Assembly (NCBI GenBank): GCA_963843145.1
Contig: CAWJJC010000028.1
Span: 512,001-576,000, forward strand
Length of the DNA stretch: 64,000 bases
Reading direction: 5' to 3'
Source of the DNA: an uncultured delta proteobacterium
GTDB lineage: Bacteria > Desulfobacterota > RBG-13-43-22
Positions 57,873-63,585 of this stretch are shown in pieces. Each line of letters opens with the position of its first letter. The first letter of the stretch is position 1. The notes beneath the pieces are model-generated. The model was not told the DNA's origin, ran no database searches, and worked only from the letters and a program-made list of their open reading frames with translations. A program made the position numbers and the translations under genes.

Positions 57873-58080
57873 CGAAGCATGAAAATTTATGTTTATTCAA
57901 TTTGTTTAGGTCGTCATTCCGGCGAACGCCCTTCGGCTAGCTCAGGGCCATGAGCATTGTCGAATGGCCGGAATCCAGGGCAGTGAAGGTCCTGGGTCAC
58001 CTGGATCCCGGATCGAGTCCGGGATGACGGCAAAAACAAAACGCCTAAAAAGCGGTGATCAATTCTATTTTCGTATTAAT
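57873..58080 (+). mobile_element. composite MITE (copy 3, different loop insert)
   Basis: CGAAGCATGAAAA ... CGTCATTCCGG..GGAATCCAG..CTGGATCCCGG..GGATGACG ... TTTTCGTATTAAT. Confidence 0.8.
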
Positions 58081-60978: not shown

Positions 60979-62189
60979 GCCTGATTAGAGAATCCCTAAA
61001 AAAAGCGCAGGAAGACGATCGGAACGACAAGACGACCGCTACGTTGATCTCGGGTTCTAAGTCCCCCGGGGGTAAAAAGGTGCCCACCAGCACGGTTATC
61101 CTGATCGGTATCGGGGTGGTGTTGATCGCCGGAGTGTATTTGTTTCTCTATCTGCCCGGCTCGCCCAAGTCGGCTGTCCCCGGGGGCGCAGCGGCGCCTA
61201 AACCCGTGATCGCGGCTCAAGCCTCTTCTCCGGCCACCCCGGCCAAGCCGGAGCTCGGCGCGGCCTTACCCTCTCCGGGGCCGACGTTAAAGACGGAATC
61301 CAAGCCTGTTCTTAGGAGTCCTGCACGGGTCAGCGGTCCAATGTCGGGTGCCATGGGTCTAACCCCGGCAGAGGGAAAGTCTTCTAAAGTCCCCTTAAAA
61401 GAAAAACTGGTGGAGGCCTCGATCCTAGGACCGGGAGCGACCCTAGCGAAGAAAGCCGGCCGGGAGAAAGAGGGGCGGGCTGACTTGACGGTCCAGCTCA
61501 AGAAAAAAACCGAACAGGGACCGGGAGCAAAAGGATCAGCCCGGGAAGTCCCGTCCGCGAACTTGAAGGGGGCCGGTGAACCACAGGGCAGGGAAAGTGA
61601 GGAGACCCTCAAGCAGTACTACCAGCAGGCTTATTCCTGGCAGCAGGAAGGGAAGATGGAGCAGGCCTTGTCCCGTTACCGTGAAATATTAGGACAGGAT
61701 CCCTCTAATCCCTATGTCTTGACGAACCTGGGACTTATCTATCAACAGAAGGGAAACTGGAAGGAAGCCGTCTCCTTGTATGAAAAAGCCCTAGAGTCGG
61801 ATCCGAAGTTTGTGCCGGCCGTGCAAAACCTGGGGGTGGCCTACATAAAGGCCGGCAACAGCGAGGAAGCGGCTCGCTGGCTGGAACGAACCCTGGTCCT
61901 CCAACCCGACAATGCCAATGCCCTGGTCAATCTGGGCATACTCTACAAAAGACGGGGCGATCGGGAAATGGCCCGTCAGTACTTGAGAAAGGCCTGGACG
62001 CTGAATAATCGTCTCCCGGAAGCCAACTATAACCTGGCCCGCCTGGAGGAGGAGGCTGGAAATATCCCTGAAGCGTATCAGTATTACCAGCAGTTTATCA
62101 GAATCCGAAATGACCCCAGCGATAACCTGGTCCGGGAAGTCCAGCGCCATGTTCAAAATTGGAAGGTTCCCGAGCCGAACCAAAAGTGA
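60975..62189 (+). CDS. MshN/GspB-like TPR protein
   Basis: MSLIRESLKKA, TM, Pro-rich linker, TPR repeats. Confidence 0.85.
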   Translation: MSLIRESLKKAQEDDRNDKTTATLISGSKSPGGKKVPTSTVILIGIGVVLIAGVYLFLYLPGSPKSAVPGGAAAPKPVIAAQASSPATPAKPELGAALPSPGPTLKTESKPVLRSPARVSGPMSGAMGLTPAEGKSSKVPLKEKLVEASILGPGATLAKKAGREKEGRADLTVQLKKKTEQGPGAKGSAREVPSANLKGAGEPQGRESEETLKQYYQQAYSWQQEGKMEQALSRYREILGQDPSNPYVLTNLGLIYQQKGNWKEAVSLYEKALESDPKFVPAVQNLGVAYIKAGNSEEAARWLERTLVLQPDNANALVNLGILYKRRGDREMARQYLRKAWTLNNRLPEANYNLARLEEEAGNIPEAYQYYQQFIRIRNDPSDNLVREVQRHVQNWKVPEPNQK

Positions 62190-62314
62190 TGTCTAACTAA
62201 AAAGTCCGTTTTTGCACAAATTCCGCTCCGGATACCGGGTGGTTTACCACTTCAGATAAAAACGGACGCGAAAGATAGCCCCAAAGCGCCGAGTCGTAGG
62301 GGAGGGGTTAATCC

Positions 62315-62732
62315 CATACGCGCTAACTTAAAGAGTGAGGGTTTCTATGTTGTCATTCCGGCGAAAGCCGGAATCCAGGGAGGCACCACTGGATAAACAC
62401 CCTGCGGTATACGTTCTGGCAAGCCAAAGAAATGGGACCCTGTATGTTGGTGTAACATCAGACCTTGTTAAAAGGATTTGGGAACATAAAAACAACCTAG
62501 TCGAAGGGTTTACCAAACGCTATGGAGTCCATCGACTGGTTTGGTATGAACTGCACGGGAGCATGGAAGCCGTTATTAATCGGGAAAAGCAGATAAAAGA
62601 ATGGAAACGCAAGTGGAAGCTCGAATTAATTGAAGAGACGAATCGAAATTGGGCGGATTTGTATTATAGTATAGTCTGAACTGGATTCCGGCTTTCGCCG
62701 GAATGACAATCTTTCTAAAGTTAGCGCTTATG
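62315..62732. mobile_element. 418-bp cassette: IS4-like TIRs + REP palindromes + GIY-YIG gene
   Basis: TIRs CATACGCGCTAACTT / AAGTTAGCGCTTATG (14/15); direct repeat GGGGTTAATCC at 62304-62314 and 62733-62743; perfect 29-bp internal inverted repeats. Confidence 0.85.
62389..62679 (+). CDS. stand-alone GIY-YIG nuclease (probable CTG start)
   Basis: VYVLASQRNGTLYVGVTSDLVKRIWEH, FTKRY, REKQIKEWKRKWK; GGAGG RBS before CTG 62389. Confidence 0.92.
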   Translation: MDKHPAVYVLASQRNGTLYVGVTSDLVKRIWEHKNNLVEGFTKRYGVHRLVWYELHGSMEAVINREKQIKEWKRKWKLELIEETNRNWADLYYSIV

Positions 62733-62768
62733 GGGGTTAATCCCCTCCCGCACCTTGCCGGGCCGACA

Positions 62769-62823
62769 ACACGAAATATGAATTTGTTTCGAGTTTCGAA
62801 ATTCGGATTTCGTGTTTCGGATT
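62769..62823. repeat. partial CGAAATT-family element
   Basis: GAATTTGTTTCGAGTTTCGAAATTCGGATTTCGTGTTTCGGATT. Confidence 0.7.
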
Positions 62824-62831
62824 GTTGGTGA

Positions 62832-63107
62832 TTACTGTATATACCCGGAGCAGATTTTTCCCAGGCCTTTCAGTTTAAAAACTTTTCCCAGTTCCCCTAG
62901 CAGCAGGTTGGTGGAGGCCTCTATTTTTTCGAGGTCTTGTTCGGTCAGGGCGGAGGGCAGAAACTGATGGATTAATTCCTTTAGGATTTCCAGTTGTTGG
63001 ACGATTTCCGGACTGATGGTTTGGCCGCCCATGTATTCATGGACCTCCAAAATAGTGTGGAGACAGTGTTGCATCCGCCATTGAAGCCTGGAAATGGAAG
63101 GGTCCAA
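62832..63107 (-). CDS. hypothetical protein
   Basis: 91-aa helical protein co-oriented with pilT. Confidence 0.65.
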   Translation of the reverse strand: MDPSISRLQWRMQHCLHTILEVHEYMGGQTISPEIVQQLEILKELIHQFLPSALTEQDLEKIEASTNLLLGELGKVFKLKGLGKICSGYIQ

Positions 63108-63117
63108 AATAGCGCTA

Positions 63118-63585
63118 TCAAGTCAAGGGTTGCCGGCGGAGCTGGAGGTAGACCCCGAACAAATCCAGATATTCCTGCCGGGATTCGGCCATCAAGCGGA
63201 TGGTGTCCATCAGGTAATCAGGATGGATGACCAGGTTGACGCTGAGGGCAAAGGCGGTCAGGTAGTCACGGGTTTTAACCGAGGTACCGATCCAGGCCAC
63301 AAACAGGGTCCGCCGGGTAGGGGCCGGAAGCTTGGCGATGAAGTTCAGCAGCGGATTCAGGTGGGGTTGATGGGTGCTAAACCCCTCGGATAGAAGCAGA
63401 AATTCGGGGGTCGAAAAGGTCAGCCGCTGGATGGCGTCTTCCAGGGAAGCGGCGATCTTAACCTCCATTCCGGCCTCGATCAACGGTGGGAGGAGTAATT
63501 CATTTAACGAACTGGGCTCCAGAGCCAGCAGGATGGCTTTTCCTTCCAGGAACTCCTGTTCAGTTGTTGTGGCTGGCTGGTTCAT
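63118..63585 (-). CDS. hypothetical protein, receiver-like fold
   Basis: AASLEDAIQRL, RRTLFV, KTRDYLTAF..SVNLVI; GAGG RBS; downstream of pilT. Confidence 0.7.
   Translation of the reverse strand: MNQPATTTEQEFLEGKAILLALEPSSLNELLLPPLIEAGMEVKIAASLEDAIQRLTFSTPEFLLLSEGFSTHQPHLNPLLNFIAKLPAPTRRTLFVAWIGTSVKTRDYLTAFALSVNLVIHPDYLMDTIRLMAESRQEYLDLFGVYLQLRRQPLT

Follow-up and report, generated by a model that had tools for sequence, protein, structure and literature searches.

The window analysed here is a stretch of 64,000 nucleotides from an uncultured delta proteobacterium (assembly GCA_963843145.1, contig CAWJJC010000028.1, positions 512,001 to 576,000 of the forward strand), and our subject is a 418-bp element that it contains (Table 1). 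We propose, with a probability of roughly 85%, that this element is a mobile insertion cassette with terminal inverted repeats (TIRs) of the IS186/IS231 type and no transposase, in which a passenger gene of the Ssn family of GIY-YIG nucleases (ssn) lies between two inverted copies of its cognate hairpin, the SRM. It is a known system, Ssn/SRM, in a new vehicle, an IS186-type cassette. The cassette has a definite anatomy, is present in multiple copies that carry target duplications of their own and recurs in many genomes, and the ssn genes borne by it cluster on a protein tree.

Two separate mechanisms would be stacked in this element, that of the Ssn protein and that of the whole cassette. Given that it shares 65% identity with a homologue from Neisseria, and that the biochemistry of four homologues has been published, the protein is predicted to bind the SRM hairpin in single-stranded DNA (ssDNA) and to cut the strand a few nucleotides upstream, leaving duplex DNA uncut. 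The cassette, judging from its anatomy, would be moved by cut-and-paste by an IS186-like DDE transposase acting in trans and recognising the CATAAGCGCTAACTT ends, with staggered cuts giving rise to an 11-bp duplication. Its preferred targets would be GGG(N5)CCC or CCC(N5)GGG, that is, the apices of hairpins with G/C stems that resemble repetitive extragenic palindromic (REP) sequences in these genomes.

Anatomy of the cassette and its target site

Both flanks of the ssn gene carry the same palindrome. A repeat search finds inverted arms of 29 nt at 62350-62378 and 62681-62709 that are 100% complementary, and as ssDNA each of them folds into an 8-bp stem with a 4-nt loop (GAAA/TTTC), with energies of -9.0 and -8.8 kcal/mol (z of -5.2 and -4.9) that none of 200 shuffled sequences equalled. 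Between the arms lies an intact GIY-YIG open reading frame (ORF; PF01541, E 1.8e-15), and the ORF list of the window has no transposase inside the 418 bp. The TIRs outside the arms agree with each other at 14 of 15 positions and are bordered by a direct repeat of 11 bp, GGGGTTAATCC, for which the repeat search gives 12 nt because the first C and the last G of the TIRs lengthen the duplication.

The sequences that flank the cassette are the two halves of one hairpin, and uninterrupted paralogues of this hairpin, GTAGGGGAGGGGTT(C/T)ATCCCCTCCCGC, stand on the same contig of the source genome, at C28:104244 and C28:125491 (we label this genome G000; its assembly is 97.9% complete, in 32 contigs). 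The cassette occupies the apex of a GTAG-type G/C hairpin, and the duplication reads GGG-TTAAT-CCC, with the register shifted by one base.

The ends of the element point to the identity of its shell. An element of 1339 bp found in many contigs of a viral collection is bounded by exactly the 15-mer CATAAGCGCTAACTT; it encodes a 372-aa transposase of the IS4 family (NF033592, with 131 bits where the cut-off is 115), is annotated as IS186B in E. coli RefSeq and occurs in 2221 of 5426 E. coli genomes. Compared with the IS186B end, the right TIR of the window matches at 15 of 15 positions and the left one at 14. The target consensus of this group of insertion sequences (ISs) is GGG(N5)CCC. For the IS231 subgroup, Table 1 of PMC2266710 gives ends of the form CAT-------AA--TAA and direct repeats of 10-12 bp; both window ends fit this consensus, and the 11-bp duplication falls within this range. 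On such grounds, the shell reads as an IS4-family, IS231/IS186-type non-autonomous cassette with a passenger gene.

Much of this had been claimed in an original prediction made from the letters of the window, namely a perfect 29-bp inverted pair whose arms are GAAA-loop hairpins, 15-bp TIRs starting with CAT next to an 11-bp direct repeat, a single hairpin restored by the removal of 418 bp, insertion in a GTAG-type REP, and a non-autonomous IS4 shell with no transposase inside; all of these claims were borne out.

Table 1. Features of the cassette in the window, and related elements elsewhere in G000 (given as contig and position)
Feature	Location	Strand	Remarks
Whole TIR-SRM-ssn-SRM-TIR cassette, non-autonomous, 418 bp (putative)	62315..62732	+	sister copies in G000, other genomes and metagenomes
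Left half of interrupted GTAG-type REP-like hairpin	62296..62314	.	uninterrupted paralogues in G000
Left target duplication copy, GGGGTTAATCC, 11 bp	62304-62314		within left hairpin half
Left TIR, CATACGCGCTAACTT, IS186/IS231-type end	62315..62329	+	14/15 to IS186B end
SRM(+) hairpin, TGTCATTCCGGCGAAAGCCGGAATCCAG	62351..62378	+	fits published SRM motif; 50 nt upstream of conserved protein core
ssn gene	62347..62679	+	PF01541; homologue identity; invariant columns kept
SRM(-) hairpin, exact inverted copy	62681..62708	-	starts 2 nt past stop codon; fits SRM motif
Right TIR, CATAAGCGCTAACTT on minus strand	62718..62732	-	15/15 to IS186B end
Right target duplication copy (62733-62743) and right half of target hairpin	62733..62753	.	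read from sequence
Sister copy	G000:C28:295271-295687		ssn 88% identical, late stop
Sister copy	G000:C17:218870-221147		ssn 94.6% identical, nested IS inside
Sister copy	G000:C28:655997 onward		frameshifted, truncated
Solo TIR end	G000:C27:34033
87-bp derivative	G000:C20:286936-287022		single perfect SRM palindrome TGTCATTCCGGCGAAAGCCGGAATGACA
GTAG REP pairs, examples	C2:25037/25160; C19:19058/19181; C27:71034/71157; C28:137716/137839

Around the cassette, an Rfam scan of 61500-63500 returned only mir-246 and a speF leader, at chance level and far under their gathering scores, and no Rfam-described RNA family is present in this interval. Just 3′ of the cassette, at 62779-62818, there is a dispersed palindrome of 7-base units (TTTCGAG TTTCGAA ATTCGGA TTTCGTG); short matches to it number about 25 in G000 and run to dozens in genomes of the same genus.

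The ssn gene and its hairpins

The product of ssn has 110 aa if translation starts at the ATG at 62347, or 114 aa if it starts at a GTG at 62335, with a conserved 92-aa core encoded by 62401-62676 and a stop codon at 62677-62679. In the 114-aa ORF, PF01541 spans residues 24-96 and is the only domain, which is the architecture of an Ssn protein. In an alignment of 18 sequences, the window protein retains every one of the 36 invariant columns, including Y4, Y15, R25, H29, E62 and N81 of the core, which we take to have catalytic roles. A homing endonuclease of the I-TevI type was considered and rejected, given that there is no extra DNA-binding domain and that the match to TIGR01453 is weak and partial (20.8 bits against a cut-off of 56, over residues 24-56 only). 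A search against the sequences of solved structures was uninformative, returning repeat-biased WD40 matches and the GIY-YIG protein 1ZG2 (E 6.6e-4).

In the homologue search, the 8000 candidates with the most shared words were scored and all of them had E<=0.001; the ssn family is very large. The best 120 homologues listed are 74-95% identical and typically 96 aa long, and at the position of their usual start, all three full copies in G000 have CTG. The first in-frame ATG of these copies sits just before the SRM (62347-62400 in the window), and the annotated 110-aa protein therefore opens with the peptide MLSFRRKPESREAP, which is a translated hairpin. Among the homologues, one from N. gonorrhoeae DSM 9188 (L134) is 65% identical over residues 1-92, with an E of 5e-40 as computed relative to the candidate stretches; for homology, Chenal et al. 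(2025, Nat Commun 16:2388, PMC11893778) require a tblastn E < 1e-10. Its NTS-rich flanks, rather than its gene name, suggest that the L134 gene is an orthologue of ssnA. A second ssn paralogue of G000 (C22:452088-452357, L063) is 53% identical; it lies outside any CAT-type shell and has flanking hairpins of its own, in the Neisseria-like dialect ATTCCCGC.

Chenal et al. published a degenerate SRM motif, HGTCWYN(0-2)YYVSBRHN(0-5)WNVSBRGN(0-2)RNCYNB, and the segments 62351-62378 (+) and 62681-62708 (-) both match it, so that the window gene has an SRM on each flank. Of 590 homologue loci confirmed in species-representative genomes, we surveyed the best 80 for SRMs at <=120 bp from ssn and found them upstream at 42 loci, downstream at 56 and on both sides at 34, against zero in all three classes with the motif read backwards. 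Over the 382,568 bases of these loci, there are 228 SRM matches and three matches to the backwards motif. The commonest layout is an SRM(+) 50 nt before the core and an SRM(-) 4 nt past the last sense codon, exactly as in the window. Furthermore, the dialect of the 8-nt stem tracks the protein phylogeny: it takes 26 changes on the tree, where shuffling gives 36.5 on average and none of 300 shuffles is as low, although this co-variation could come from shared descent alone. The comparison thus indicates that the nuclease is specifically tied to its flanking TGTC/CGTC hairpins.

The original prediction had put forward this tie between a GIY-YIG gene and CGTC/TGTC palindromes by analogy with RAYT and GTAG REPs, and had proposed flanking-palindrome enrichment at homologues and co-variation of repeat and protein tree as checks on it. 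Both checks came out as anticipated and the association stands, but it is not new: the pairing of GIY-YIG gene and hairpin is the published Ssn/SRM system and is in print with the RAYT/REP analogy included.

An important question is whether the enzyme itself copies and disperses TGTC/CGTC hairpins, as a RAYT would, with the IS4 shell serving only as a vehicle. G000 contains 126 matches to the SRM motif, against 37 for the backwards pattern, and the 20-nt core of the hairpin has 34 sites, mostly away from any ssn gene, many of which are inverted doublets without a gene and REPIN-like in look. Each of the two ssn paralogues has its own dialect, the dialects track the protein tree, and the same hypothesis is raised in the Discussion of Chenal et al. 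However, joining or strand transfer is not known for this GIY-YIG family, and the available parts of PMC11893778 describe cleavage alone; the commonest dialects of G000, GTCATCCCGGAC (25 copies) and GTCACCCCGGCG (10), have no partner ssn in the assembly; and shared descent would explain the co-variation by itself. Such a role for the enzyme, which would be compatible with the cassette interpretation, seems to us rather doubtful. Within the window, the dialect GTCATCCCGGACTCGATCCGGGATCCAG is found at 58001-58029 (-) and has 25 sites genome-wide, which makes it the commonest SRM dialect in G000; no ssn gene with this dialect was found in the G000 assembly.

Copies, relatives and the putative partner transposase

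The TIRs occur six times in G000, in the window copy and in five further copies or remnants, and therefore the anatomy described above is not due to chance. All four elements that have both ends carry an 11-bp duplication of their own, that of the C20 element with one mismatch. The events that distinguish the sister copies would be secondary, namely a collapse between two SRMs in one case and, in another, an unrelated IS701-family IS that inserted at an SRM.

The first of these cases is an 87-bp miniature inverted-repeat transposable element (MITE) on C20, which could also be taken as an ancestor. In such a homing-type origin, an IS186-type MITE of 87 bp with one SRM would have come first, and ssn and the second hairpin would have been copied in after cleavage by Ssn. 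The element does hold a single perfect palindrome, and its junctions are exactly those expected for an ssn segment inserted after the 3′ stem, but a deletion between the 8-bp direct repeats of two palindromic stems explains these junctions equally well. Its subterminal sequences are nearly identical to those of the ssn-bearing C17 copy, and MITEs in other genera that have the same TIRs (those of 94 bp in G194, and in G197 one of 185 bp that has REP-like hairpins) carry no SRM. The clustering of cassette-borne ssn genes, as for a single capture or very few, also speaks against homing, which we consider unlikely. Because its subterminal sequences match those of C17 and the MITEs of other genera lack an SRM, we favour the reading that the 87-bp element arose when an ssn cassette collapsed between its two palindromic SRM stems, and that it is not the ancestor of such a cassette.

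The second case is the C17 copy, which contains an IS of 1838 bp (C17:219250-221087, L061/L066) with 18-bp inverted ends, CTGGAGTTTGGAC(C)TTTTT. This IS encodes a small HARE-HTH-like ORF and a 458-aa DDE transposase (NF049999, 131.7 bits, below the cut-off of 170; DDE_5, 27.1, at the cut-off of 27). The transposase gene lies between the CAT-type TIRs of the C17 copy, and we first assumed that this IS701-family enzyme was the autonomous partner of the shell. That assumption was dropped when its own ends and its shell-less copies were seen, and it now appears highly improbable. In fact, the 1838-bp unit recurs without the shell at C9:40926-42753 (with a 100% identical match over C9:40940-42313) and, 96-97% identical, in two genomes of the same genus (L067, L068), and each copy stands next to a different palindromic hairpin. 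Around the IS in C17, the 20-bp SRM stem-loop is directly duplicated, so that the IS is a nested insertion; this duplication is far longer than the 4 bp that Table 1 of PMC2266710 gives for IS701 elements.

In a sample of 401 genomes from the phylum, 19 contain the exact 15-mer TIR, and the same 15-mer read backwards has one match in all 401. Around the 80 homologue loci, where we allowed up to two mismatches in the TIR, ssn lies inside the same shell at nine, seven of them with both ends; one of these shell-bearing loci is labelled Candidatus Bipolaricaulota and one Pseudomonadota. The cassette-borne genes cluster on the protein tree, which was built from 92 columns and has few supported forks, with 4 changes against 11.4 and none of 500 shuffles as low. 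In metagenomes, a scan for the TIR-gap-hairpin junction returned 62 loci on 59 contigs, with ssn at 46 of the loci. These loci contain 25 distinct TIR-bounded elements of 165-586 bp, eight of which have perfect 11-bp duplications. These duplications are mostly of the form CCC(N5)GGG; for instance, CCCGTCAAGGG is the apex of the CCCTCCC-N5-GGGAGGG hairpins that are common in these genomes. It is possible, and we suggest it tentatively, that transposase-less cassettes of the IS186 type are a general vehicle that carries hairpin-specific nuclease genes and their hairpins between distant bacteria, landing preferentially in the apices of resident REP hairpins and seeding families of hairpin repeats.

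As for the enzyme that would move these cassettes, four other genomes deserve mention. In G311, G326, G329 and G370, matches to the TIR lie 30-200 bases from contig ends, a pattern typical of an IS whose many copies break up assemblies. In G311, G326 and G370, the contigs stop about 100 bases into a multi-copy element with these ends, and the bins do not contain its interior. Transposase fragments came from G329 alone, where the contig ends beside the TIR encode one stretch (residues 276-356) with 43% identity to the IS186B transposase and another (residues 7-121) with 36%, in the IS186 layout. The IS of G311 (L157-L159, L165-L184) is itself multi-copy, with the same 15-bp ends, two distinct subterminal sequences and at least 24 contig ends.

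Several observations weigh against the interpretation of the 418-bp element as an IS186-type cassette. The original prediction had proposed looking for an IS4 transposase with these ends in the genome, and G000 yielded no IS186-like transposase: with the IS186B protein as the tblastn query, the best E is 0.18, and NF033592 matches only IS701-like genes, at about 20 bits. Three of five other cassette-bearing genomes have an IS4-type transposase above the cut-off, none of them flanked by these ends, and neither an IS186-like nor an IS701-like transposase occurs at any of the 62 metagenome loci. We infer the cognate enzyme, since it is known only from the identity of the ends with IS186 and the contig-end fragments of G329. 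Because no matching transposase is assembled in G000, the cassette is probably stranded there at present. The search for empty sites in relatives was likewise unsuccessful, with no clean one in the same-genus genomes G001, G002 and G003. The orthologous intergenic region of G001 has no cassette and measures 143 bp, against 645 bp in G000, but it is not a clean empty site because it has diverged and carries another hairpin (TGTCATTGCGAGCGAAGCGAAGCAATCCCCAG, in the place of the cassette at L313:1989-2131, that is, G001:C16:59971-60113). G002 has the cassette interior only, at a contig end, and in G003 the gap at the orthologous region is about 3.3 kb longer. Furthermore, the strict GGG(N5)CCC pattern fits only the window target and part of the targets of other copies, and other G000 copies sit in G-runs without a C-run. 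One cassette-bearing locus, L091, lies outside the main cluster on a tree that is, with its 92 columns, poorly resolved. With CTG as the usual start codon, translation may need the upstream ATG near the hairpin, and the ssDNA-cutting activity of the window protein is a prediction.

Comparison with known systems

Among the elements that resemble the cassette, IS186A/B of E. coli (IS4 family) shares with it the terminal 15 bases and a duplication of about 11 bp at a site made of a G-run and a C-run; in the IS186 copy that we examined, the duplication is GGAGAAATCC within GGGGAGAAATCCCC. In contrast to the window element, IS186 is 1339 bp long, encodes a 372-aa transposase and has no hairpins or nuclease; that transposase is missing from the window element, whose interior shows no other similarity to IS186 either.

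The MIC231/IS231 cassettes of the Bacillus cereus group have a target of the GGG(N5)CCC type, a pattern that the window target shows with its register shifted by one base. They also share IS4-family CAT ends, a 10-12-bp duplication and the absence of a transposase, with a passenger gene and mobilisation in trans (PMC2266710). The window cassette differs from them in that its ends are those of IS186, its hosts are uncultured Thermodesulfobacteriota-like and other environmental bacteria, and its passenger is a nuclease with recognition hairpins of its own.

The likeness to REP/REPIN-RAYT systems consists in a small enzyme gene placed between inverted copies of a palindrome that occurs genome-wide, with gene-less doublets elsewhere. 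However, the enzyme of the window is a GIY-YIG nuclease and not an HUH Y1 transposase, and we know of no transposition chemistry for a GIY-YIG nuclease of this kind. G000 also contains a family of GTAG REPs, GTAGGG(G/C)NGGCGACCCCGCC..., often as REPIN-like inverted pairs about 123 bp apart, and 11 matches to Y1_Tnp (PF01797), all of them elsewhere than the cassette; given these pairs and matches, G000 probably has a RAYT/REP system of its own. A crude count of "GTAG + hairpin" did not discriminate (75 GTAG against 78 GATG), and the family is clear only from reading the matches. Three layers of palindromes are stacked at this locus and its copies, in which REP hairpins would be the targets, SRM hairpins the cargo and hairpins again the insertion sites of an IS701-like element.

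The nuclease and its hairpins correspond to the Ssn/NTS system of N. meningitidis SsnA. Chenal et al. (PMC11893778) describe single-domain GIY-YIG proteins of about 94 aa (cd10448, GIY-YIG_unchar_3) flanked by SRM hairpins, with the Neisseria NTS reading CGTCATTCCCGCGMAVGCGGGAATCYRG; they report that four purified Ssn homologues cut only ssDNA, upstream of the hairpin, and that Ssn affects transformation in Neisseria, and in their Discussion they liken NTS-ssnA-NTS to insertion sequences and RAYT/REP. In the available parts of that paper, mobilisation of the hairpin is not demonstrated and no means of movement is given for this IS-like unit. In the literature that we searched, Chenal et al. 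was alone among reports from 2025 on SsnA and GIY-YIG, and we found no IS186-type vehicle for Ssn, no link between IS186 and GIY-YIG and none between GIY-YIG and REP sequences.

The window shares with Ssn/NTS a single-domain GIY-YIG protein of about 96 aa at 65% identity, inverted SRM hairpins on both sides that are within a few bases of the Neisseria NTS, and many SRM copies without a gene. In contrast, its unit is enclosed by IS186-type TIRs and a target duplication, a vehicle that does not appear in the available parts of PMC11893778, its stem reads ATTCCGGC and not the ATTCCCGC of Neisseria, and the start codon of its ssn gene is displaced into the hairpin. Known Ssn biology is unchanged by this finding. 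Nevertheless, the cassette is a compact natural Ssn/SRM pair with a non-Neisseria stem dialect, which may interest those who build ssDNA tools, and its IS186-type ends with target duplications suggest a way, open to testing, in which Ssn and its hairpins could spread horizontally. If such cassettes do prove to be a general vehicle, Ssn/SRM would gain the mechanism of mobility that its discoverers, in the available text, left open.

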